Notes: generated from the sequence alone by a model not told the origin. A stretch of DNA of 64,000 nucleotides from Nitrosopumilus sp. (GCA_965207075.1 CBDBLO010000002.1:1184001-1248000); one strand, 5' to 3'; shown: positions 9,923-40,997, numbered from the stretch's first letter. Numbers and translations: made by a program.

Positions 9923-10426
9923 TCAGGCGAACTCCTCAAGCGGCCGCAGCTGCAGCCGGTCCAGCCGGCGCTGTCCCGCAAGCATGCGCCGGTCGTCCGC
10001 CGTCTTGATCTTGTGGCACTTGCTGCAGAGCGTCTGCAAATTATCACGGTCCCACGGGTCGCCGCCGTTGCATATGGCAACGCGGTGGTCGACGTGCAGC
10101 AGGTACGGCACGTACCCGCCGTCCGGACCGGGACCGTCGCCGCACTGCACGCACCTGTACTGGTCGCGGTTCATCACGGCGTACCTGACGGTCGGCCAGA
10201 ACTCGAACTGCTCCCACCACATGTGGCGGTGCTTTTTGCTGCACGCCCACGCGTCCTGGTACCAGCGCAGCCCGCGCGTCATGGGCTCGGCGCCGCACCA
10301 GCACTTGCCGTCGTGCAGATTGCGCAGCGCGGTCTGCAGGTCCATGCCCTCCGGCCAGTTCCACACGATGTGCTCGACCGGCCGGCCGCCGCTTGCAACC
10401 AGTGAGGGCGTCTCATGCCTGTACAT
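9923..10426 (-). CDS. HNH endonuclease
   Basis: RDQYRCVQCG..LHVDHRVAICNGG..NLQTLCSKCHKIKT. Confidence 0.88.
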   Translation of the reverse strand: MYRHETPSLVASGGRPVEHIVWNWPEGMDLQTALRNLHDGKCWCGAEPMTRGLRWYQDAWACSKKHRHMWWEQFEFWPTVRYAVMNRDQYRCVQCGDGPGPDGGYVPYLLHVDHRVAICNGGDPWDRDNLQTLCSKCHKIKTADDRRMLAGQRRLDRLQLRPLEEFA

Positions 10427-10931
10427 CAGCGTATGCCTCCAGCGGCCTTGGTATGTTGTGCTTTTCGCGCTTGCGGCGGCCGGACAGTTCCCGTCTGTCC
10501 TCCGCGGTCTTCTTGTGGTGGCAATCGGAGCACAGCGTGCGCAGGTTGTCCCGGTCCCAGAAGGCGCCGCCGTTTGACACGGCTGTAATGTGGTCCACCT
10601 CCAGCCAGTCGTAGCTCAGTGTCCCGTTGCTGTACTTTTCCACGTGCCCGCACATCTGGCACGTATGCTTGTCGCGCCGGATGACCTCCAGGCGCACCGA
10701 AACCCACCGCTCGAACTGGGACCACCATACGGCGGTGTGTTCCTTGCTGCACGACCACCACGCCGAGTTGCGCGAGGGCTTGCCGCACCAGCACTTGCCT
10801 GCATGTAAGTTTGTCAGGGCGGTATGCAGTTCCATCCCCTCCGGCCACGTCCACACTATGTGCTCGTACGGGCGGCCGTTGGCCGAGCCGATGCATCCCG
10901 CCAGCGAGGGCGTCGGATAACTGTAGGGCAT
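10413..10931 (-). CDS. HNH endonuclease, tandem paralog
   Basis: RDKHTCQMCG..LEVDHITAVSNGG..NLRTLCSDCHHKKT. Confidence 0.88.
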   Translation of the reverse strand: MPYSYPTPSLAGCIGSANGRPYEHIVWTWPEGMELHTALTNLHAGKCWCGKPSRNSAWWSCSKEHTAVWWSQFERWVSVRLEVIRRDKHTCQMCGHVEKYSNGTLSYDWLEVDHITAVSNGGAFWDRDNLRTLCSDCHHKKTAEDRRELSGRRKREKHNIPRPLEAYADVQA

Positions 10932-28926: not shown

Positions 28927-30060
28927 TCACGGCCGCACGGGCGGAGGGATTGGAAACCGCCTCGCGTGCAGGACCATGTGTCCCCGCTGGATGCCGTCGG
29001 TTACGAGGGCGCGCAACGCGGAAAAGTTCTGACACAGCCCGACGGCGGCCATTATCTGGGCCAGTTCCCCGGCCGTCGGGGAGCCGAGAATATCATGGAG
29101 GCACGCGGCCGCCACGGGGTGGCGCGTGGTGAGCCCGCCCACGGTGCCGACCGCAAGCGGCACGGACAGGCTGCCGTGCAGCCTGCCGTCCCTGACCTCC
29201 CAGGCGGACAGCGGGCCGTACGTTCCTTTCCCTGGCTCGGTCGACGCGTACGCGTGCGCCCCAGCCTCTATGGCGCGGGTGTCCTGCCCGGTCGCCAGGG
29301 CCACGGCCGTGATGCCGTTCATGATCCCCTTGTTGTGCGTGACGGCCCTGGACACGTCGAGGCGGGCGAACCTGCAGGCGTTCACCACGTTTGCGGCCAC
29401 GTCCTGTGGGACGTCAAAAACTGATTCGGCGTACGCCACGCGTTGCATGTGGTTTGACAGTATGCGCAACAGTGCGGTGCCCCCTGTGGCGTCCTCTATC
29501 AATGGGGCCACGCCCTCGCACGCCGTGTTGACGGAGTTGGCTCCCATCGCGTCGACAGTATTGACGTAGAACGCCACCCTGAGCATGTCCTCCGCAAGCA
29601 TTGCGTATGACAGGCCGTTCTCCGGCCAGTCCTCGTCCACGCGCATGCGTGCAGACGGCAGGGATTTGTTGGCCGCGTCTATGATCTCCCTCCTCCTGTC
29701 CTTCAATGATTCCAGGGCGTTGCTGTCAGGGTTCATCACCAGTACCTGCCCGGCGACGCGCGGCTCTGACGAGCTTGCGTTCAGGTCGATGGCGGCCTTT
29801 GCGCCCGCGCCGGCGGCCGCTATCACGGACGGTTCCTCCGTGGCCATCGGGACGCCGGCGTACGGGCGGCCGTTGATCACAAAGTGCTCCGCCACACCGA
29901 GCGGCACGCCGTACGCGCCCACCGCATTCTCCACCAGTACGTCGGCATCCGTCGCGGACATGCCGCCGGCCGACAGGTAGGCGGCGGCGTCACTGCCCAG
30001 TTCCGGGGCGACCCGTGCAAGCCGCTCGTGTGGCTTCATGTCGCGGAGCTTTGGTGGCAT
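28927..30060 (-). CDS. mvaA: HMG-CoA reductase, class II
   Basis: ENAVG, MATEEPSV, DAMGAN, RILSN, THNKGIMNG, GQDTRA, GIQRGHMVLH. Confidence 0.93.
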   Translation of the reverse strand: MPPKLRDMKPHERLARVAPELGSDAAAYLSAGGMSATDADVLVENAVGAYGVPLGVAEHFVINGRPYAGVPMATEEPSVIAAAGAGAKAAIDLNASSSEPRVAGQVLVMNPDSNALESLKDRRREIIDAANKSLPSARMRVDEDWPENGLSYAMLAEDMLRVAFYVNTVDAMGANSVNTACEGVAPLIEDATGGTALLRILSNHMQRVAYAESVFDVPQDVAANVVNACRFARLDVSRAVTHNKGIMNGITAVALATGQDTRAIEAGAHAYASTEPGKGTYGPLSAWEVRDGRLHGSLSVPLAVGTVGGLTTRHPVAAACLHDILGSPTAGELAQIMAAVGLCQNFSALRALVTDGIQRGHMVLHARRFPIPPPVRP

Positions 30061-30730: not shown

Positions 30731-32125
30731 TCATGTGTCAGCCTTGAAATGATCGTCGACCCTGGCCCGTATGCGGTCAAAGTCGTCCGCCCCGTATATG
30801 GATCCGTCTTGGAACACCACGCCCAACTGGTTCTCGTACTTGGCGTGCTCGTCGTCGTCCCTCACGGTCAGGTATATGCCGTGCTCCCTGATCAGCTTCA
30901 GTCTGCCGCGCTTGGACTGTTTCGAGCGGTCGCTCCGGGGGTCCTTATACACGTCCCGGGTCTCGCCGTTGACGTCGGCCCAGTTGCACTTGATGGCGAA
31001 TTTCTGCGTGTCGCGGTTGCAGTCCTGCAGAAGTCCGCCGCCGCTGCCGAACACGAGGTTGTCCGCGGACCACCCCTCGTCCATTATGCGCTTGATTATC
31101 TTGGGCAGCGTGCGGTATGATATGCCGTCGCCCTGCAGTATGCTGACGTGCCCCAGCACCTTGTATCCCTTGCCGTTCACCGTATATCCGAACGCCTCGG
31201 ACAGAGCCTCAAGGCAGGACAGTATGCCGGCGGCTGGCTCCCCGGAGTCCGGCCTGATGACCAGGTTTCTTGACGTGTTCTCTGTTATCTCCTTATGCAG
31301 CTTCCTTCCGTATATCTCCCTGCAGGCGTTCGTTATGTCCCACGAGTCGCTTACGATGCTGACCGTGCCCGTTGGGAACTGGCTGAGTATGTGGCGGTAC
31401 GCCTCGTGTTCGCCGTCCCTGCCCCACATTGTAACCGTGGAATGCTCGGCAGCCGGGACAGACTCGCCGACCGGGACGGACGCGCCGTAGTGCTTGGACG
31501 CGAACCGCATGCCAGCGATGTTGTCAGAGCCGCGGAAGTTCAGCAGGTGAGCCGCGCCGCCGATGCCGGCCGACTCGAGCGACGAGCTGCCGCGGAAGCC
31601 GAAATCATGCAGCATGTGGGGCAGCCTGCCCGGGGTGCCGGACCTTTCCAGCGCCGCGTGCAGCGCCTTGCGCTGGTAGTACGATATGGTCGCGACGGTG
31701 CTGGGGTACCAGACCTGCAGCAGCAGCGTCTCCACGTGGTTTGTCAACCACGGCACTTCGGGGTCGGTGTTCTCCACGGTCAGCATTACGTCGCTGGTCG
31801 GTATGACGCTGCCCTCCGGCACGGCCCGTATGAGCAGTGGCAGCCTGCCGTCATGCACCGACAGTATACGCTCCCAACCCGCGCGGTTGAAGACGCCGGC
31901 GCCCATGTGGGACTCGACCAGCGCCTCGGCCTCGTCTATCTTTTCTCGCGTGACCACGGCACCCGCAAGGTGCTTCTCCATCAGATACCGCAGCCCGAAG
32001 AACACTGTGCGGGTGAACTCGGCTCCCAGCCGGGCTTCAAGGTATGATCCCATATACCTGAGCCCTGGCGGGTACATCTTGTGATGGGACATCTTGTAGC
32101 TGTCGGTGTTGAGTATGGCGTTCAT
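30731..32125 (-). CDS. nadV: nicotinamide phosphoribosyltransferase (NAMPT)
   Basis: TDSYKMSH, HDFGFRG, PAAEHS, VSDSWD, VIRPDSG, QGDG, FGSGGGLLQ, KDP..K.SKRGRL. Confidence 0.93.
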   Translation of the reverse strand: MNAILNTDSYKMSHHKMYPPGLRYMGSYLEARLGAEFTRTVFFGLRYLMEKHLAGAVVTREKIDEAEALVESHMGAGVFNRAGWERILSVHDGRLPLLIRAVPEGSVIPTSDVMLTVENTDPEVPWLTNHVETLLLQVWYPSTVATISYYQRKALHAALERSGTPGRLPHMLHDFGFRGSSSLESAGIGGAAHLLNFRGSDNIAGMRFASKHYGASVPVGESVPAAEHSTVTMWGRDGEHEAYRHILSQFPTGTVSIVSDSWDITNACREIYGRKLHKEITENTSRNLVIRPDSGEPAAGILSCLEALSEAFGYTVNGKGYKVLGHVSILQGDGISYRTLPKIIKRIMDEGWSADNLVFGSGGGLLQDCNRDTQKFAIKCNWADVNGETRDVYKDPRSDRSKQSKRGRLKLIREHGIYLTVRDDDEHAKYENQLGVVFQDGSIYGADDFDRIRARVDDHFKADT

Positions 32126-32193
32126 TTTTGGTCGTTCCCCCACCGCTGCGGCTTCACGGTATCGTATCGCGGCATGCCGATAAAAGGCAAAGG

Positions 32194-32268
32194 CGAACCC
32201 GGCAGGACTCGAACCTGCGATCTGGCGCTCCGCGGGCGCCCGCACTCTCCGGGCTGTGCTACGGGTCC
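32194..32268 (-). tRNA. tRNA-Arg(GCG) with C33
   Basis: GGACCCG/CGGGTTC, arm GGCGC-CCGCGGA-GCGCC, GCAGG-TTCGAGT-CCTGC; starts 1 nt after the ligase stop. Confidence 0.9.
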
Positions 32269-32269
32269 A

Positions 32270-33325
32270 TCATGAATATTCAGTTCCACCACCCCTGACC
32301 AAATATTTCGGGCTCACGCTCTTGAGCATCACCCGTCCCTGCATGTCCGACCGCTCCGGCACGGGCCGCACTACCACGCCCTCGCGTACGTGGTCCGCCC
32401 CCGGTACGAGCGACGGGCCGGACGTATGTTCTTCCAGCGCCTCCAGTGAGAACGGGCCCTTGTAGGCCAACGGGGCATGTCTCAGCCTCAGGCCGCCTCG
32501 GACCAGGTCTATGTCCGACTGCGTGACGTACGTGCCGTCGGACAGCATGACGTCAAAGACGGCCATGTCAAGATCAGTCCCGTAGTGCAGGTCCTGCACA
32601 TCGCGGCCGTAGATCTCGCAGAACACGTGGACCGGCCCGTCGTCACCGTCCTTGCCGCGTGTTGCGCGCAGATCCTTGGTAATCGCGTACAGGTCGTGCG
32701 CGTACCGTCCGGCCATCCGCGTGTAGATGTTGTCCACGCCGTCGGCAAACACGAGCTGGGATGCGGCCCACCCCTTGCTGGACACCGCTATGGAGTCGTA
32801 CGGCCTGACCGCGCAGTAGCACAGCACGCCGTGCACCTTCTCGTGCATCGTGACGGGCTCGCCCTCCTGCAGCCTGCCGGGGTGGTTCTTGATGTTCTCA
32901 ACGTCGTATGACGCGAGTTTGTCATTGCCGCCGTACCGCACGACCTTGCCCCTCATGTCCGTGGGTATGACCGGCTCGTACTTTGTCACTCCGAGCAGCT
33001 CCGTGCAGTCGGCCCCCTCCTTCCATTTCCACCCGTCGAGTTGTTTGCCGCTGTATATCAGCCCCTGGGAGAGCACGCCGCGCAGCCGCTGGGCGCTCAC
33101 GCGGTTGTGCTTCTTCCCGCCCAGCTTGCCGACCAGCCCCATCTCCTCCAGTATCGATTTGGGGACGATCGCCTGCTCCGGTATGTACGCGGCCAGGTCG
33201 CCCGTCTTGTACATGCCCTTGGGCACGACGCACTTGTACCCCATCACCACGGCAATCTCCAGCCTGTCGGCCTCGGGGTGCTTCTCGACCTGCAGCCTAT
33301 GCATCTCTACTGCAAAGCTGGCCAT
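32270..33325 (-). CDS. ATP-dependent RNA ligase, DRB0094/Rnl5 family
   Basis: N-terminal HPEADRLE..SQGL OB module; motifs EKVHG, EIYG, FDV, EGVV, KSVS..YL. Confidence 0.9.
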   Translation of the reverse strand: MASFAVEMHRLQVEKHPEADRLEIAVVMGYKCVVPKGMYKTGDLAAYIPEQAIVPKSILEEMGLVGKLGGKKHNRVSAQRLRGVLSQGLIYSGKQLDGWKWKEGADCTELLGVTKYEPVIPTDMRGKVVRYGGNDKLASYDVENIKNHPGRLQEGEPVTMHEKVHGVLCYCAVRPYDSIAVSSKGWAASQLVFADGVDNIYTRMAGRYAHDLYAITKDLRATRGKDGDDGPVHVFCEIYGRDVQDLHYGTDLDMAVFDVMLSDGTYVTQSDIDLVRGGLRLRHAPLAYKGPFSLEALEEHTSGPSLVPGADHVREGVVVRPVPERSDMQGRVMLKSVSPKYLVRGGGTEYS

Positions 33326-33880: not shown

Positions 33881-34625
33881 TCATGGCGCGGACTTCTGCG
33901 GCCTTCGTATGATCCGCAGCCGCACGGCGCATTCCTCGCAGTAGATGTACTTTCGGATGCCCGGCCTAGAGTTCTTGCTCACCACGGCGGTCCCCGGAAA
34001 GCACTCCGCGCCGCACTGGCGGCAGTCCGTATGGTGTCCGAGACGGCGCCTGTTGCTGTACTTGGCCGTGTCCATGACAAAGCGCTTGGCGGGCATCAGG
34101 CGGCCGTCACCTCTGAAAGTTCGCACACGCCGAGCCGGACGGCGCACTCGGCGCAGTATCGCTTGCCGTTCAGGCGCCGGGGCTTGGAGACGGCGACGTC
34201 CCCGGGCGCGAACTCGCGGCGGCAGTTGCCGCATCCCGTATAGGGGGTGCGGCGTCCCGAGGCGTGCCCGCGCCTAGCGTCCGTCGCCTGCTGCCTGCGC
34301 CGGCGGCCGTCCTGCTGGTCCAGCCACTTCTGGCTGACGTGTATCACCGTGACCGGAGCCACGCGTCCACCTCCGAAGCGGTGCATATTCCAAGCCTCAC
34401 GGCGCATTCCACGCACCAGTGTTTGCGGTGCTTGCCGCTCGGCCTGCTCACGGCCAGGCTTCCCACGGACAGTTCCGTCCTGCATTCGCAGCACGCGGTA
34501 TACGGCGACTTGCGCCCGGCCGAGCGACTGCTCCGCATGGTGGCGTGGGCCTTGAGTTCCTTGTCCTGCAGGGTGCGCTGGTATGTCAGCCACCGGCGTT
34601 CTATGCGCATTATGAATGCCGGCAT
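33881..34625 (-). other. three tandem CAVRL-family Zn-finger CDS (33881-34096, 34096-34362, 34344-34625)
   Basis: CxxC..G..VS..CxECAVRL in each. Confidence 0.75.
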
Positions 34626-35037
34626 CAGGGGGGAGCCCCCTGCCTCGCCGCGTCCACAATGCGGCGGACCTCCTGCATGCTTTCCACGCGCCGCATGGAG
34701 AACGCGCCGGCGCGGTGCGGCTCGTAGAACGCGTGCTCGACGGCCGCCATCAGGGGCGTCCAGATGCCGGGAACCTGGACCGCCCTGTTGCGCGGCATCC
34801 CGGCGCAGCACTCCACGCAGTAGTAACGCTCGCCGGCTCCGTCGTAGTTGAGGACAAGCATGGTTATCGCGCCGGCGGCGTGGACGTCGCTCATCTTACG
34901 CCGCCTCCCTGTACGTGCGGCACCCGCAGGAGGGGCAGCCGCCGGGCGCCACGCACGACCCGCGGCACGGGCACCGCAGGCACTTCCGCTCGCCCATGTA
35001 GTGGTCGTCCCTGGGGCAGCCGCACATGCAGGGCATG

Positions 35038-35424
35038 TCAGCACCCCTCCTCCCCCGGGCGGTGGGCCAGCGTGTCCACGTTGCGGATGATCGGGTTCCC
35101 AACACCGCGCTTCCCCAGTTCCTCCCGCGCTATATCGCATGACTCTGGAAGTATCTCCATGTGCTCGATGCGGGCCGCCGTCTCGGGCGTGATGATCCCG
35201 GCGTCCATGCCGCGCGTGGTGAAGTTGGCCTCGCCCGCGAACGGGTCGATGATGTGGACGCGCTCCCCGTTGAGGCCATCGGCAACGCCGAACTCGGTCT
35301 TCAGGATGTGGTCTACGGAGTTCTCGATAAAGTCGATGAGCTCGGGCGGGGTGAACACCTGCACCTTTTTCTTGTCTTGGCGGGCCTTTGCGACGTCCTC
35401 GTCCGTGAGGGGCTTGTCCGTCAT
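35038..35424 (-). CDS. stand-alone N-terminal half of an N6-adenine DNA methyltransferase (type ISP-like)
   Basis: VFTPPELIDFI..ILKTEFG..VHIIDPFAG..EIL..DTL; no NPPY motif. Confidence 0.7.
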   Translation of the reverse strand: MTDKPLTDEDVAKARQDKKKVQVFTPPELIDFIENSVDHILKTEFGVADGLNGERVHIIDPFAGEANFTTRGMDAGIITPETAARIEHMEILPESCDIAREELGKRGVGNPIIRNVDTLAHRPGEEGC

Positions 35425-36002
35425 GTCAACACCTGCTGCCCTGCACCCCGGTTCTTCTGGGCGATCTCCTCCAGTATCTTTGTCCGCTTGGCCTCTATTA
35501 GCTCGCGTTCATGCTTGATTGCGTTATTGGTCATGCCCATGCGCGGCTCCCCCATGGCGGCGCTGCGGCGTTCGATTGCAGTCTTCTCGGCGTGGCATGG
35601 CTTGCACATCAGTTGCAGGCGTTCCTTGGCAAGGTCGGGGTTGCGTAGGTAGTACCTCACTATCGAATTAGAGTTTCCGATGGCCTTGCGGTCTACGGAG
35701 CCGTCCGACCTGATGTGGTCTAAATGTAGGTTGGACGTGACATGGCACACGACGCAGGAGCCGCCGAGCAGCTTGAGGATGTCGCGGCGCATGGCATAGT
35801 ACATCTTGCTCTTTGAATCCGCGTCGCATTTCTTGCACCACGTCTTAAGCCCGTGCGAGTTGACCTTGCTCTTGCTGAAGTGGTCGTAGGACAGGGTCAG
35901 CCCGCACTTCTTGCAGATGCGCATCTTGTTCTTGTCCAAAAGCTGCCTTTGGCGGCGCTTTAGATCCAGACTGCGAATTGCAATCTCGTCAAGCTCGCTC
36001 AT
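35421..36002 (-). CDS. HNH endonuclease-like protein with N-terminal Zn finger
   Basis: CKKC..WCKKC; LGGSCVVC..LHLDHI..LQLMCKPCHAEKT. Confidence 0.75.
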   Translation of the reverse strand: MSELDEIAIRSLDLKRRQRQLLDKNKMRICKKCGLTLSYDHFSKSKVNSHGLKTWCKKCDADSKSKMYYAMRRDILKLLGGSCVVCHVTSNLHLDHIRSDGSVDRKAIGNSNSIVRYYLRNPDLAKERLQLMCKPCHAEKTAIERRSAAMGEPRMGMTNNAIKHERELIEAKRTKILEEIAQKNRGAGQQVLT

Positions 36003-36523
36003 TTGGCGGCCTCCTGTTTTCTGCGTCGCATGATTGTAAGCCTTGCCCATCGACAGTCGTTGCACAGTATTTTGAGGTGCTTGACGGCCTGCTCCGGGCG
36101 CTTGAGATAGTACGCGTACCGCATCGAGGGGAACGTTGGAACGTCGGGGTTGTGTACGACCTGCGTGACATAGGCGCGACTGCTGTCTTTTATGGCGGTC
36201 TTGCAGATGTGGCATGTCGTGCCGCCTAACAGCGACAGGATTCCGGCGCGTACGCTGGAGTTGTGCCTGTGGGATTCCGCGCTGTGGCATTTCCGGCAGA
36301 TGTGCTGCAGCCCGTCTGCCGTGCGGCAGTGGCGCGCGAACTTCTCGCGGGGCAGTGGCTTTCTGCATCTAAAGCACATCTTCAGGTTGTTGGCGGCGGC
36401 CTGCCTCTTGATCAGTGTGGCCAGCTTTACCTGCAGTTCTAGTTCCCGCTGATTGATCGCGTCAAGTTCCTCCTGCGTGGTGATGTATCCGGGAGTCGGC
36501 TTTTTCTCACGGTTGGTGTGCAT
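35999..36523 (-). CDS. degenerate HNH paralog
   Basis: Same Cys scaffold (CFRC..CRKC, LGGTTCHIC..LKILCNDC) but DH and terminal H absent. Confidence 0.65.
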   Translation of the reverse strand: MHTNREKKPTPGYITTQEELDAINQRELELQVKLATLIKRQAAANNLKMCFRCRKPLPREKFARHCRTADGLQHICRKCHSAESHRHNSSVRAGILSLLGGTTCHICKTAIKDSSRAYVTQVVHNPDVPTFPSMRYAYYLKRPEQAVKHLKILCNDCRWARLTIMRRRKQEAAK

Positions 36524-37081
36524 TACGACATGTCCCTCCTCGGCTGGTATGACATGCATCCGCAGGACGACACCATGCAACGGCGCGTGCGCTCCATCGG
36601 CTTTGTCTGCTCGTGGGCGTCGGACGGGTGGCGGCACCCGCGGCATGTCGAGTCGTTGGCCGCCACGTTGCGGATTGCCTGCGCGCGTCTCTGCATTTTT
36701 TCGGCGATGTACATGGCTTTGCAGTCGCATATCATGCAGCCCTTTTGGTGGGAGGTTGCGGGGTGGCCGCACCCGTCGCATGTGACGCGTTCTGCCGCAG
36801 AAGGTATGGCGCGCTGGCGGTACTTTACGCGCTTCCTCATGCCTATGGCATTGAGGTGTCCTGTCTTCGGGTGGACGTCAGACCAGCGGGGCATTATCCT
36901 GTTGACACCTCCGGCATCCTGACCGGTCCCTGCCTTTTTTGAGCCTCCCACAGCAGGCACGTGCATATGACAAAGTCGCCCGCCTCGTTGGTGTCTATGT
37001 GGGTGCACCGCGGGCCTGCCTTGCCGAAATGCAAATGGATGCGTTCAAGGTGGCCGCAGCCGCGGCAGAACTTTTCGTCGA

Positions 37082-37567
37082 TCAGCCGGATCCTCCCCCC
37101 CGCTGCATGTGCTGCTCGAGCATCCCCCTGTACTCCCACGCCTTCTCCTGCATGGCACCGGGCCACGGCCAGTTGCCGCCGTCTGCTATGAGCTCAAGCG
37201 AGCCGCACTTTACGGAGCCGTCGGGCTGCCTGCCGAACGGCATCAGGCGGATGTCCAGCAGGTCGGCGTCCTTGCACCGTTCGCGGGCGGCCTTTACGGC
37301 GTCCCCGTTGATGTCGGCGCCGTATATCTCGACGCGTGCGGCGCCCCGGTCGCGGGCTTGGCGCATGCCCTCTGCCAGCAGTATGCCGGAGCCGCAGGCG
37401 GGATCGAATATGCGGACGCGCCTGCCCCTGTGGTCCTCGGCCCCAAACGTCATCCCCACGAGCAGCGTCGCCGCGGCGGAGGACGTATAGTAGGAGGCGG
37501 CCTCCTTGCGGTGCTCACTGTCACCGGTTTCGGGGTCGTACTTGACTGGCCTTTTTTCGTTTGTCAT
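37082..37567 (-). CDS. stand-alone SAM-binding half of an N6-adenine DNA methyltransferase
   Basis: RK..SYYT, IFDPACGSGILL, IYGADIN, GSLELI; no NPPY/F motif. Confidence 0.75.
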   Translation of the reverse strand: MTNEKRPVKYDPETGDSEHRKEAASYYTSSAAATLLVGMTFGAEDHRGRRVRIFDPACGSGILLAEGMRQARDRGAARVEIYGADINGDAVKAARERCKDADLLDIRLMPFGRQPDGSVKCGSLELIADGGNWPWPGAMQEKAWEYRGMLEQHMQRGGGSG

Positions 37568-38023
37568 TTCTTCACACGCCTCCGGGTGTCATTCCGGCTG
37601 CCCGACCGGGCGTAGCGGCCCTGGTGGTCGGTGCGCGGCATGACTGCCTGCGCGGTCTGGGTGGGCATCTGCGACGCGTCCTCCCCGGGCATGTCCATCG
37701 GGCGGCCGCACTCGACGCACTCCATGTTGGACGTCCAGCCCGTGCCGCCGTCGCCGGTGTCGCCGAACGTCTCGTAGTATACGGTGCCGCCGCACTTGGG
37801 GCACACTGGGGGCTTGGTCAACCCGCGGCCTCCTTCAGCATTTGCGACACGCTCTTGTGGTACGTGCGTATCCTGAGCTGCTTGCCGCAGCAGGGGCAGT
37901 GCCTGCCATCCCAGTCAGTCTGCATGTCACATGGGCGGCAAACCTTGGTTGCGCCGCGCCTGCGCTGGCCTCCTTCCATCAGCGTGCCGAGCGAGTATCT
38001 GTCGCATTTGCCGCGGCATGCCA

Positions 38024-38683
38024 TCAGTCCCGCACCAACCTGTTCTTGCGCGCGTGTCTGTTGTTGCCGACCGTCCCCCTTGCGCGGCGGGCGGCTATTG
38101 CGCGGTGTCCCATGCCGGTTGACGGCGCGGCGGCGTCGCAGCCCGTGCGGCGGCACGTTCCAAGGAGGCGGTAACATCTTTGGCAGTACGACCCCGGTTC
38201 CTGCTCCGCGCGGCGGCGCATCTCGGCCACTCCGCCGTCGCTGACCCCAAGGCCGCGGGCGGTGCGCCGCGATACTGTGCGCTGCGACCTGACCTTGCCT
38301 ACGGTGACATGCTCGCGGGCGGCATGCACCTGCAACCGCTCCCTTGTTTGTTCGTCCTCGGGACGGGCGGAGTATATCTCGCAGGCCAGGTGCTCGGGGG
38401 CCACGCACGTGGTGTTGCGGCACGATCTCGTTATGGTGGCGCCGGCGGGGGGCGCGTGTCCGCGCCACGCCCTGAACAAGTGCGGCAGTATGCCGACGCG
38501 CTTGCCGCCGATCTTGGCCTCCGGCTGTCCCTTCTTGGACTTGCCCGTCCAGGGGCGGCAGCCGTTCTTGTCGGCCGCGCCAATCGCTCCGCGCCGCAGC
38601 ATGTCGCACGCCCGTTCGCGTACAGCGGCGGTCGCGGGATCACCGGCGGCCTCGGCCAGCCTGCCGTAGGTCAGGGGTGGCAC
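38024..38683 (-). CDS. degenerate phage-type HNH (His-Me finger) protein
   Basis: GCRPWTG..G..CRNTTCVAPEHL scaffold; TRSC in place of the usual xHxC. Confidence 0.6.
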   Translation of the reverse strand: MPPLTYGRLAEAAGDPATAAVRERACDMLRRGAIGAADKNGCRPWTGKSKKGQPEAKIGGKRVGILPHLFRAWRGHAPPAGATITRSCRNTTCVAPEHLACEIYSARPEDEQTRERLQVHAAREHVTVGKVRSQRTVSRRTARGLGVSDGGVAEMRRRAEQEPGSYCQRCYRLLGTCRRTGCDAAAPSTGMGHRAIAARRARGTVGNNRHARKNRLVRD

Positions 38684-38747: not shown

Positions 38748-39080
38748 TCACTGTGGTGCGGCCTCCTCTACTGCGTTCCCGTATACCGCGCGGGACTTGC
38801 GCGTCGCAAGCACCGCGTCGATGTCGGCCTGCGTGCAGATGCCCAGGCGGACGGCGCACGTGCCGCACCGGTACACGCGGTTCCTGCCCGACCGGCTCAC
38901 GTAGGTGTCGCCCAGTTCAAACTTGTGGCTGCAGTGGTTGCACGAGTCCCACGGGGCGGCGCGCACGTGCCCGCCGGTATGCGGCATGGTCTCGCGCTGC
39001 CTCTCGTGTTCGCGCTGCGTGGGTTGCTGCCGCGCAAGCCACAGCCTCGTGACGAGCCTGACCCGGAAGGAGGACGTCAT
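38748..39080 (-). CDS. CAVRL-family Zn-finger protein, copy 4
   Basis: CNHC..GDTYVS..CGTCAVRLGIC. Confidence 0.7.
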   Translation of the reverse strand: MTSSFRVRLVTRLWLARQQPTQREHERQRETMPHTGGHVRAAPWDSCNHCSHKFELGDTYVSRSGRNRVYRCGTCAVRLGICTQADIDAVLATRKSRAVYGNAVEEAAPQ

Positions 39081-40997
39081 GGGCCGGCCTCCGCAGTGGG
39101 GGTGTCGGGGACGGGCTCGATGTCCCTCCTGCGCGCGCCGCAATCAAGGCAGGCAAGGCCGCCAGCGCCGCTGTCGAGGTACCAGCGGTGCCCCCCGGGG
39201 CGTTGGCCGCAGGCCTCGACGGCCTTTTCGGTGGCGGTCTTCCAAGGGGGCGCCTCGGAGGGTGGAGGGGACTGCTCGCTGGCGGGCATGTGGCAGACGG
39301 TGCACACATCTTGGCCGAGCAGATCGCTGTACTGGTTTTTGTGTACTATGCACCTCAATGTCCGGACCTCCCGGCGGGACTGGAACCCTTGCCCTTACCG
39401 CGGCACCGCAGGCAGCACCCGCAGGGCCGGCTGACGCGCAGCACCCTGACGTACGGCCAGTGCCTCAGTGAAAGTTCCATTATCAGCGCGCGGTGCTCGG
39501 GCAGCCGCTCCGGGCAGTGCCTGCCCTCGTGGGCGGCGTGCCCGCAGAGGGAGCACGTCCTGCCGTTCCGCCCCGCCCCGCCCGGGCCGGTTTCTTCCGC
39601 CGTTCCGCCCTCTTGCGGCGGCGGGCTTATCCACCATCCGGGCTGCTCGGTGTCGGCCTCCGTCAGTATGTCGGTGCCGTCTGACGGGACGCCGTGCGGC
39701 GCGTCCGTTCCTCTTCTGCCGCGCCCCGCCGTCGCTGTGTCGTCGCTTTCTGCCATCCGATTCACTCCTTTCCCTACCCGCGGTTCTCCCGTCCGTCCCC
39801 GCATCCCGCGACGTGAACACCGGCGGCCGCAGTAGGCGGTACCGGTTCCCCCAACGCCCGCGTCAGGGACTGGCGGCACAGCGCGAGTATGCGCAGGTCG
39901 TCGTCCTGCAGCCCCTCGTACCTTTCAAACGAGGACATGTCGTTTCTCGTCGCGCGTATTATCCTGGCCGCCGCATGCACGGTGTCGTCCTCCTCCGGCA
40001 TTTCCAGCATGCCGGCCGCCCGCCTGAGTGACTTGGTGTCGGCGTGCAGGTGGTCCAGCGCCGCGGCGTTCTCCAGTTTGAGCTGCGTGCGGTTGAGCAT
40101 GTGCTCCATGCGCTCGACGGCCCTGCGCACGGACTTGGCGGCGTCGAACCTGCCGGGCGGCGACAGCATGAGCCACCACGGGAGCCGCCTCGGCCTTCTT
40201 GGCAGGGGGACGTACACTTGCATCATCTCCTGTGGCCCGGGCCCGGGTCCGCAATCCCCGCCCCGACGCGGGCCAGTTTTTCCCTCGTGTACGCGTCGGC
40301 GACATGCTCCTCCATGGTGGCAAAGGAGTTGCCGGCGTACTGGCAGGCGCCGCATTTGTAGATGTGGGTGGATTCCAACCCGCATACGGTGATCAGTCCG
40401 TACAGGTCTTGCCCAGTCGACACGGGCGTGTAATGCGGGGACGGCCGGTCCATCACGCGCCACCCTCCCCGGGCCCGCAGTTCTCCAAGTCCCACTCGCG
40501 GCCCTCGAACACCTCGTCGAGGGCGCGTATGTCGTCCTTCAGGCGTATGATGTGTGGGGGCATGTCGTCCACGCCGCATCTGGCGACCTGGGCGTGGCCC
40601 GTGCCCGCGCAGTTCTTGCGGGCGGATTCGGCAAAGTGCTCCACGTCGTCGAGCTTTTTGCGCATGCCGCTTACGGATGCAGTGATGCTGTCGCAGCGCT
40701 TCCCGACAATCTCATCCGGGTCCTCGACGGCCCTTGAACCGGGTCCGGCCGGGCCGTCAACCAGGACGGGCACCATGAACCGCACGCGGCTGAAGCCAGC
40801 GTTCAGGTCGCACTTGTCGCAGTCGCTGTCCCCCGGCGGGTCAGTGCACGTATCTGTGCTCTGCATCACCAGCATGTAGCCGCACCCGTTGCACCGGTAT
40901 GCGATGATCGTTTCCCGGCTGAAGCGCTCGCAGTACCAGCAGATGCCGCCCTCTTGTATAGACGCGGTGGGCAGCCCGCACCGCCTGCAGTCGGGCA

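Follow-up and report, generated by a model that had tools for sequence, protein, structure and literature searches.

Stand-alone front halves of restriction-enzyme methyltransferase domains in an archaeal mobile element

We describe two short genes, half1 and half2, found in a 64,000-nt stretch of a Nitrosopumilus sp. genome (GCA_965207075.1 CBDBLO010000002.1:1184001-1248000; hereafter the window). Each encodes only the N-terminal half of a gamma-class N6-methyltransferase domain. Half1 (128 aa; 35038..35424, minus strand) corresponds to the front part of a Type ISP methyltransferase domain of the LlaGI/LlaBIII kind, an assignment made by profile and fold. Half2 (161 aa; 37082..37567, minus strand) appears to descend from a second lineage with the ISP architecture, or from related methyltransferases of ~900 aa. 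The two are very probably real short families maintained by selection. To the explanation as a whole, in which two independent conserved families of SAM-binding (S-adenosylmethionine-binding) front sub-domains would serve in counter-defence by imitating parts of enzymes, we give an even chance.

Anatomy, coupling and parentage of the two halves

In gamma methyltransferases, SAM is bound through motifs X, I, II and III. Half1 carries them as FTPPELIDF (X), DPFAGEANF (I), the acidic residue E90 (II) and NVDTL (III), and its stop codon follows nine residues further on; half2 has YYTSS (X), DPACGSG (I), YGADIN (II) and DIRLMPFG...GSLELI (III), and then a 34-residue tail. Both truncations lie between strand 3 and motif IV (NPPY), which is present in neither protein and in no frame near either gene. 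Coverage of the matching profiles is partial. Half2 matches Pfam N6_Mtase (PF02384) at 5.6e-7 (29.6 bits, cut-off 20.4) over profile positions 20-93 of 311 only, and half1, for which there was no Pfam match, matches PADLOC PDLC03597, a nuclease-methyltransferase fusion model, at 2.7e-14 over positions 878-949 of 1646 only. An earlier, sequence-only reading had proposed two N6-methyltransferase fragments that keep motifs X, I and the acidic motif II and end before NPPY, and the motifs and the partial coverage bear this out. Motifs V-VIII and the target-recognition domain were found in neither half; without motif IV and a target-recognition domain, the halves are unable to methylate.

The AlphaFold (AF2) model of half1 (predicted local distance difference test score [pLDDT] 90.6, predicted template-modelling score [pTM] 0.81) shows a pair of helices at the N terminus and three strands separated by helices. 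All fold matches of this model in the PDB were methyltransferases (Foldseek), with LlaGI (5ffj), LlaBIII (4xqk) and DrdV at the top and ISP-lineage matches at ranks 1-4; the half1 profile, run against the PDB, likewise placed 5ffj (8.4e-23) and 4xqk (1.2e-22) first, then DrdV. Half2 was modeled with a beta-alpha-beta-alpha-beta core at moderate confidence. Regardless of any anti-restriction role, selection would here have preserved half of the Rossmann-type methyltransferase fold, with three strands, as an independent protein, which bears on ideas of how the methyltransferase fold originated.

Both genes belong to a minus-strand run of small, tightly packed genes across 35038-38683, as read from the sequence, with four stop/start overlaps of ATGA or TAATG form. 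One ATGA combines the TGA of a Zn-ribbon gene (37564-37821) with the ATG of half2; another couples the stop of HNH-A, an HNH endonuclease gene, to the start of half1; a further ATGA links the stop of its paralog HNH-B to the start of HNH-A; and a TAATG joins the TAA of a Cys/His-rich open reading frame (ORF) to the ATG of HNH-B. GC content at third codon positions (GC3) is of the coding type (half1 0.87, half2 0.84; 0.84-0.92 with the Zn-ribbon gene included). A 46-aa Cys-rich ORF without a family match (34896..35036, minus strand; sequence reading) begins 2 nt past the half1 stop, so no methyltransferase remnant lies behind half1, and a Cys/His-rich reading frame comes after half2. The clean, coupled starts and stops without a downstream remnant that had been noted from the sequence thus hold, both in the ATGA overlaps and in the outcome of the tblastn search described next.

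Split methyltransferases exist, and a bare three-stranded half-Rossmann unit would, judging from the secondary structure of the model, expose the edge at which strand 4 pairs; each half might therefore form an active methyltransferase with a separately encoded half carrying NPPY and the target-recognition domain. In tblastn searches at E<=10, the C-terminal halves of the host's two nearest enzymes matched nothing in the window, and genome-wide they recovered only themselves and chance-level matches. A whole-genome PF02384 scan yielded no orphan C-half, since every match was accounted for: a type I HsdM, a broken ISP gene, a 982-aa protein, half2 and one 1358-aa frame. A scan for [NDS]PP[YFW] over 150 kb found motif IV, among likely genes, only in the 982-aa enzyme and in two complete beta-class N6_N4 methyltransferases. 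The separate NPPY-bearing halves that had been thought possible were thus not found in the genome by these scans, and the frames that follow half1 and half2 are the small Cys-rich and Cys/His-rich ones. We consider a split enzyme very unlikely.

Alignment of the half1 family with LlaGI and LlaBIII covers roughly the initial ~140 residues of their gamma methyltransferase domain, with motif X, DPFxGxGxF, an acidic motif II and DTF in common. Type ISP enzymes are defined, in passages of PMC3874165, by an N-terminal Mrr-like nuclease and a superfamily 2 (SF2) translocase in one chain. Half1, at 128 aa against ~1,400-1,580 aa, differs in having no Mrr nuclease, translocase, coupler, motifs IV-VIII or target-recognition domain; neither the Mrr-like nuclease nor the SF2 translocase was found in half1 or half2 with Pfam and PADLOC, and the coupler and Type_ISP_C specificity domain occur in the host's long ISP gene, not in half1. 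Long relatives are common in the host's family. There, the half1 profile (~7-126 of 130) aligns with long frames, mostly of 1000-1700 aa, in 44 of 401 genomes including the host, and matches at E<=1e-12 in the phylum sample are confined to seven of 401 genomes, host included, all seven within the host's family.

Within the host genus, half2 finds its best long matches in proteins of 1382 aa (L051), 1443 aa (L052) and 1223 aa (E 1e-11 to 2e-9). The first two have Mrr_cat_2, ResIII/Helicase_C and N6_Mtase/Eco57I domains, an ISP architecture built on another methyltransferase lineage; the third has helicase and methyltransferase domains and no Mrr match. Other long relatives are methyltransferases of ~890-980 aa, one of them 17 kb upstream of the window, and the half2 profile reaches 1.7e-21 against an 892-aa open frame in G063, a genome from another genus of the host's family. 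Half2 and its long relatives have in common the pattern YYT...D[PF]ACG[ST]G...G.D[IV]...IRLMP.G...GSL[ED]L. The half2 profile matches the front half of the methyltransferase part in Mrr-helicase-N6_Mtase/Eco57I enzymes and in ~900-980-aa N6_Mtase proteins (L051, L052, L002 of 982 aa, P0004 of 892 aa), but half2 stops where these long proteins continue for ~30-50 residues to NPPY, and has instead its own tail, WPW..., a predicted helix.

Same-length families and their distribution

A HMMER search with half1 over 1.84 billion representative proteins returned 442 proteins at E<=0.001, and we examined the 150 best. Twenty-six of these 150 are of the same length as half1 (105-172 aa, reaching profile position >=122 of 130 and ending <=27 aa later). 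Several short homologs sit inside contigs of 17-87 kb and so were not cut by contig ends, and in one 90% cluster all four members are 134 aa long. In an alignment of 23 short forms (27%-61% identity to half1), T25, P26, F32, F45, P61, G64 and F68 are invariant, and E28, S36, G46, D60, E90 and D117 are conserved in >=90%; conservation thus falls on motifs X, I, II and III. That cofactor-contact residues have been kept over such deep divergence suggests that SAM binding, or a shape stabilised by SAM, matters. An N-terminal CxxC...CxxC extension is found in three members of the family (P0008, P0057, P0141). We inferred a maximum-likelihood tree, with 200 bootstraps, in which 27 short forms were set beside the corresponding segment of 31 proteins of >=700 aa (the long forms). 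A single branch divides the 27 short from the 31 long sequences (support 100/91; 200 of 200 bootstrap trees), and the short forms are deeply diverged among themselves.

For half2, a word-based search gave one short homolog (P0002) and a 353-aa ORF (P0003) whose last ~165 residues align with half2 and share its end point; a profile search added P0157-P0162, of 135-192 aa. The seven short homologs among the matches listed (P0002, P0157-P0162) show 40%-64% alignment identity to half2, and all end soon after GSLELI and a WPW-type tail. The same-length homologs by which the fragments could be judged are therefore at hand for both genes, 26 of the 150 best for half1 and seven listed for half2. By eye, some C-terminal tails of the half2 family (window residues ~139-155) resemble peptides that bind PCNA or other clamps: QARLDMYY in P0158, RESLDAYL in P0003 and RGMLEQHM in the window's half2, the others (P0002, P0159 and P0160) ending in RQETL or RQETLI.

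Could the two genes be the neutrally decaying remains of two broken restriction genes? The host's Type ISP gene is indeed broken by an insertion sequence (IS) element, and many ORFs of the region are without a family match. Against such debris stand the clean, overlapping start and stop codons, the coding-type GC3, the same-length homologs at 27%-64% identity that retain the motif residues, and a tree in which the deeply diverged short forms all fall to the same side of one branch with strong support. Coupled operon, codon usage and diverged homologs of the same length all argue against debris, to which we give almost no credence, and the earlier view that the truncations are not random decay is upheld, both proteins belonging to same-length families that keep the SAM-motif residues.

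We were also interested in whether the two halves occur together. One European Nucleotide Archive (ENA) contig of 25,247 bp is on record as the source of both the half1-like P0008 and the half2-like P0002, the linkage being judged from the recorded contig size, so the pair may travel together; the recorded contig sizes of 18 half1 homologs match that of a half2-homolog contig in this one case only. Half2 homologs are also found on contigs of 115,328 and 88,181 bp. Genome and metagenome contigs scanned with the half1 and half2 alignments (seven rows in the case of the half1 family) gave only weak partial matches. The ESM Atlas holds many clusters of N6_Mtase-only proteins of 119-204 aa, some labelled viral, so half-methyltransferases are a wider phenomenon than the present locus.

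Anti-restriction and other possible roles

What the halves do is a matter of more tentative judgment. As far as their sequences can tell, their job may be anti-restriction, a prospect that we place a little below even; of the ways in which this could work we favor, with similar caution, mimicry, in which the free front half of an enzyme would compete for a surface or a partner. Each half consists of a motif X helix and a three-stranded beta-alpha-beta-alpha-beta unit with motifs I, II and III, and the source of both is the methyltransferase part of restriction enzymes that join nuclease, helicase and methyltransferase in a single chain, in which the host family is rich. Expressed from the tightly coupled accessory operon of the element, a half would, for example, occupy the partner surface normally taken by the restriction enzyme's own front half, possibly with SAM bound, and might act jointly with the Zn-ribbon protein encoded just upstream. 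If the halves do block restriction, this would be a new principle, a piece of an enzyme turned against the enzyme, and a compact tool for bringing DNA into microbes that are hard to transform.

Such proteins would resemble the DNA mimics Ocr and ArdA, the T3 SAM lyase and Lar/Ral in being small accessory genes of mobile elements that act on restriction-modification (R-M) enzymes or their cofactor, and would differ from Ocr, ArdA and the lyase in imitating a piece of the enzyme rather than mimicking DNA or cleaving SAM. Neither half matches a known anti-restriction family (Ocr, ArdA/B/C, KlcA, SAM lyase) in Pfam or PHROG, and half1 has no fold match among them; the PADLOC matches of both are to methyltransferase models of R-M systems. 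Among the neighboring genes, only the HNH-A Zn-ribbon matches a Lar-like PHROG (2.1e-9). Another parallel is offered by viral versions of defence subunits that act as poison for the complex: one anti-CRISPR, in a discussion passage of a preprint (10.1101/2025.06.06.658234), is proposed to replace Cas11. There too an element keeps a cut-down homolog of a component of host defence; the CRISPR effector, however, has multiple subunits, whereas the parent enzymes here are single chains, to which binding of the halves is only proposed.

To our knowledge, an inhibitor has been described neither for Type ISP enzymes nor for related single-chain restriction enzymes, and very little is known of counter-defence in archaea. 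In the literature passages retrieved by full-text search, half-methyltransferases that stand alone are nowhere described as proteins of mobile elements or of anti-restriction, and the main-text passages of a preprint cataloguing 268 anti-defence proteins mention none.

The sequence-only reading had suggested SAM sponges or dominant-negative decoys. Decoys are a plausible idea; as sponges, the halves would soak up SAM and starve SAM-dependent defences. No columns of the short half1 family are better conserved than those of motifs X, I, II and III, as a sponge would have it, and removal of SAM has a precedent in the phage T3 SAMase, which defeats type I R-M and the BREX defence according to the abstract of 10.1101/2023.02.27.530186. 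Yet SAM is an abundant cell metabolite, and a stoichiometric binder would have to match its amount; half of the binding cleft, from motif IV onward, is not there; and the second glycine of motif I is replaced in half1. In addition, LlaGI, the type enzyme of the parent family of half1, cleaves without AdoMet (that is, SAM), described in the relevant passages of PMC2790903 as "not obligatory" for cleavage and mildly stimulatory. Removing SAM would thus block protection and not attack, which disfavors the sponge; we regard it as unlikely.

A service to the element other than anti-restriction has a minor but real chance: the halves might be SAM-sensing regulators, subunits of a Zn-ribbon/HNH nuclease or weapons against competing elements. 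Half1 is coupled through its ATGA to a Zn-ribbon HNH gene. In the distant, low-GC genome G063, a 59-aa Zn-ribbon ORF again directly precedes a half1 homolog and weakly matches phrog_2633 (5e-4) and phrog_5558 (1.3e-3), the same PHROGs as the HNH-A/HNH-B Zn-ribbon. The CxxC...CxxC extensions of P0008, P0057 and P0141 point the same way, and the island's two complete N6_N4 methyltransferases could need control. On the other hand, the Zn-ribbon ORFs of the window and of G063 are not significantly similar by BLASTP (E 0.04-0.12), the halves have no regulator or DNA-binding domain, and such a role leaves their specific descent from restriction-enzyme modules unexplained.

Several observations weigh against counter-defence by enzyme-part mimicry. 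Type ISP enzymes are single folded chains, in which a docking site for a free front half is not obvious, and the host's own Type ISP gene, being IS-interrupted, is not a current target. In half1 and its nearest relatives, alanine replaces the second glycine of motif I (DPFAGEANF), which may weaken SAM binding, and the half2 model is poor beyond the core (pLDDT 58). For the half1 tree, 93 of 150 rows had been set aside, being 181-699 aa long or covering the profile only in part, and the long rows are those most similar to the short query, so the tree gives separation and not direction of descent. Finally, no short homologs were detected in IMG/VR viral contigs scanned with the half1 and half2 alignments, and, among representative genomes, the only candidate short copy besides that of the host is one cut by a contig end in G063; the status of the halves as mobile-element genes is thinly supported as a result.

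A bolder extension of mimicry is one that we find doubtful: a widespread, hitherto undescribed class of inhibitors, carried by archaeal and bacterial mobile elements and made from the cofactor-binding front halves of the restriction enzymes that these elements meet, in which the two ISP-type halves would work as a set, through a pseudo-symmetric half-Rossmann dimer or a tether by the half2-family tail, which is like a PIP box (PCNA-interacting peptide), and jam single-chain ATP-dependent enzymes. In principle, two beta-alpha-beta-alpha-beta halves that dimerise could restore a sheet of six strands.

Neighboring genes, the element and its host

The remaining genes of the run are of another kind. 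HNH-A (35421..36002, minus strand) encodes a 193-aa Zn-ribbon and HNH endonuclease with the motif intact, both HLDH and CHAEK retaining the catalytic histidines; on a longer reading (35421-36047), it matches the HNH families phrog_4234 (3.9e-15) and phrog_2255 (7.5e-12) and, with its Zn-ribbon, the Lar-like phrog_5558 noted above. HNH-B (35999..36523, minus strand), a 174-aa Zn-ribbon protein with weak PHROG matches to endonuclease VII and the Lar-like Zn-ribbon, is a paralog (BLASTP, 28% identity over 151 aa, E 2e-15) in which the HLDH and CH positions are replaced. The presence of an HNH gene and a catalytically eroded paralog beside the halves is as the sequence-only reading had it. Its view of them as disarmed R-M parts did not survive: HNH-A is a Zn-ribbon/endonuclease-VII-like nuclease and HNH-B its dead paralog, of a type found in mobile elements. 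Their GC content (56% in HNH-A, 58% in HNH-B; GC3 0.75-0.78) is lower than the 64%-70% of their neighbors, which suggests a separate origin. Since the HNH genes are not R-M parts, the earlier description of a disarmed R-M cluster makes the locus seem more of a unit than it is.

Next to HNH-B lies the Cys/His-rich ORF (36523..37008, minus strand; up to 161 aa, start uncertain; GC3 0.72), without a family match in Pfam or PHROG. The Zn-ribbon gene upstream of half2 (37564..37821, minus strand) encodes 85 aa with weak Zn-ribbon Pfam matches only (GC3 0.92). At the upstream end, a degenerate HNH_3-like endonuclease homolog of 219 aa (38024..38683, minus strand; GC3 0.83) matches phrog_1872 (endonuclease, 4.5e-13) and phrog_6254 (HNH, 2.2e-6) and has no Pfam match; it is presumably His-less, its first catalytic histidine having been lost, judging by eye from ITRSCRNTTCVAPEHL against a consensus.

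At least four small paralogous minus-strand ORFs flank the operon (33881-34234, 34096-34659, 34344-34811 and 38748-39143). Their C-terminal Zn-ribbon ends in a near-identical C.ECAVRLG[IV]C followed by ..[DE][IV][DT]A, the mark of a locally expanded family, and one of them has a weak Pfam DUF6510 match (2.7e-4). A second tandem HNH pair (9923-10426 and 10413-10931, minus strand; phrog_589, 3e-17 and 1e-23) lies 25 kb from the locus.

The host genome (2.23 Mb, 60% GC) encodes an archaeal AmoA (1e-116), identifying an ammonia-oxidising archaeon, and no methyl-coenzyme M reductase (MCR) alpha was found in it, which led us to reject a methanogen as host. Archaeal core genes lie nearby (Pfam matches to EF-1 alpha, tRNA-intron endonuclease, class V fructose-bisphosphatase [FBPase] and ATP-dependent ligase). 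The window is inside a GC-rich stretch of ~100 kb which, with its flanks, holds TraG-like proteins, HerA/VirB4-like ATPases, T2SSE/F-type proteins, a PrimPol-D5 primase, ribonucleotide reductase and the two N6_N4 methyltransferases. PHROGs recognised no virion genes among 48 window ORFs, and ~35 ORFs at 33.4-51 kb had no family match at all. The genes thus reside in a large integrated mobile element, neither a bacterial prophage nor a recognisable phage. A phage setting was rejected: DNA and protein matches in phage collections were nil for the region except for two weak Listeria phage matches to half1, and the surrounding genes are of archaeal core and conjugation type. Large integrative-conjugative and cryptic elements occur in this archaeal group, according to PMC6563490, in the passages of which anti-restriction genes and half-methyltransferases do not come up.

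An IS transposase gene breaks up the Type ISP gene that the host itself carries (L001, G000:C2:428000-438000), which has the domains ISP_coupler, N6_Mtase and Type_ISP_C. The ISP gene now consists of an 863-aa SNF2-type helicase and an 823-aa frame with coupler, methyltransferase and target-recognition domain, with the DDE transposase between them; the target-recognition domain runs on into a further 258-aa frame.

Upstream of the window (L002, G000:C2:1160000-1172000; L045, G000:C2:1172001-1184000), the 982-aa N6_Mtase/Eco57I protein is flanked by a NucS_C-like protein (PADLOC PDC-S11, 1.4e-35) and a RecB/Cas4-like nuclease. An Mrr gene, a PrimPol-D5 primase and a row of DUF5131, DUF488, ThiF and N6_N4 methyltransferase genes are close by, and the region may be defence or DNA-modification cargo of the same island.

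The window holds other candidate counter-defence genes: an anti-restriction-like PHROG match, NAMPT (phrog_448, 3.8e-149), an RNA ligase (PF09414), a LigT-like protein (2',5' RNA ligase family) and four tRNA genes. NAMPT, the two RNA-ligase-type genes, a tRNA-Arg gene and a tRNA-His/Thr/Cys cluster are spread over the intervals 30731-32245, 32192-32268, 32270-33325, 1836-2720 and 2525-2747, listed here in no gene order. Together, NAMPT, the RNA ligase, LigT and the tRNAs are a possible counter-defence kit of the archaeal element for restoring NAD and repairing tRNA. Finally, we noted an HMG-CoA reductase gene (28927-30060), which belongs to the archaeal lipid-synthesis core, among the accessory genes of the GC-rich island, as in a mosaic island or as a second copy.

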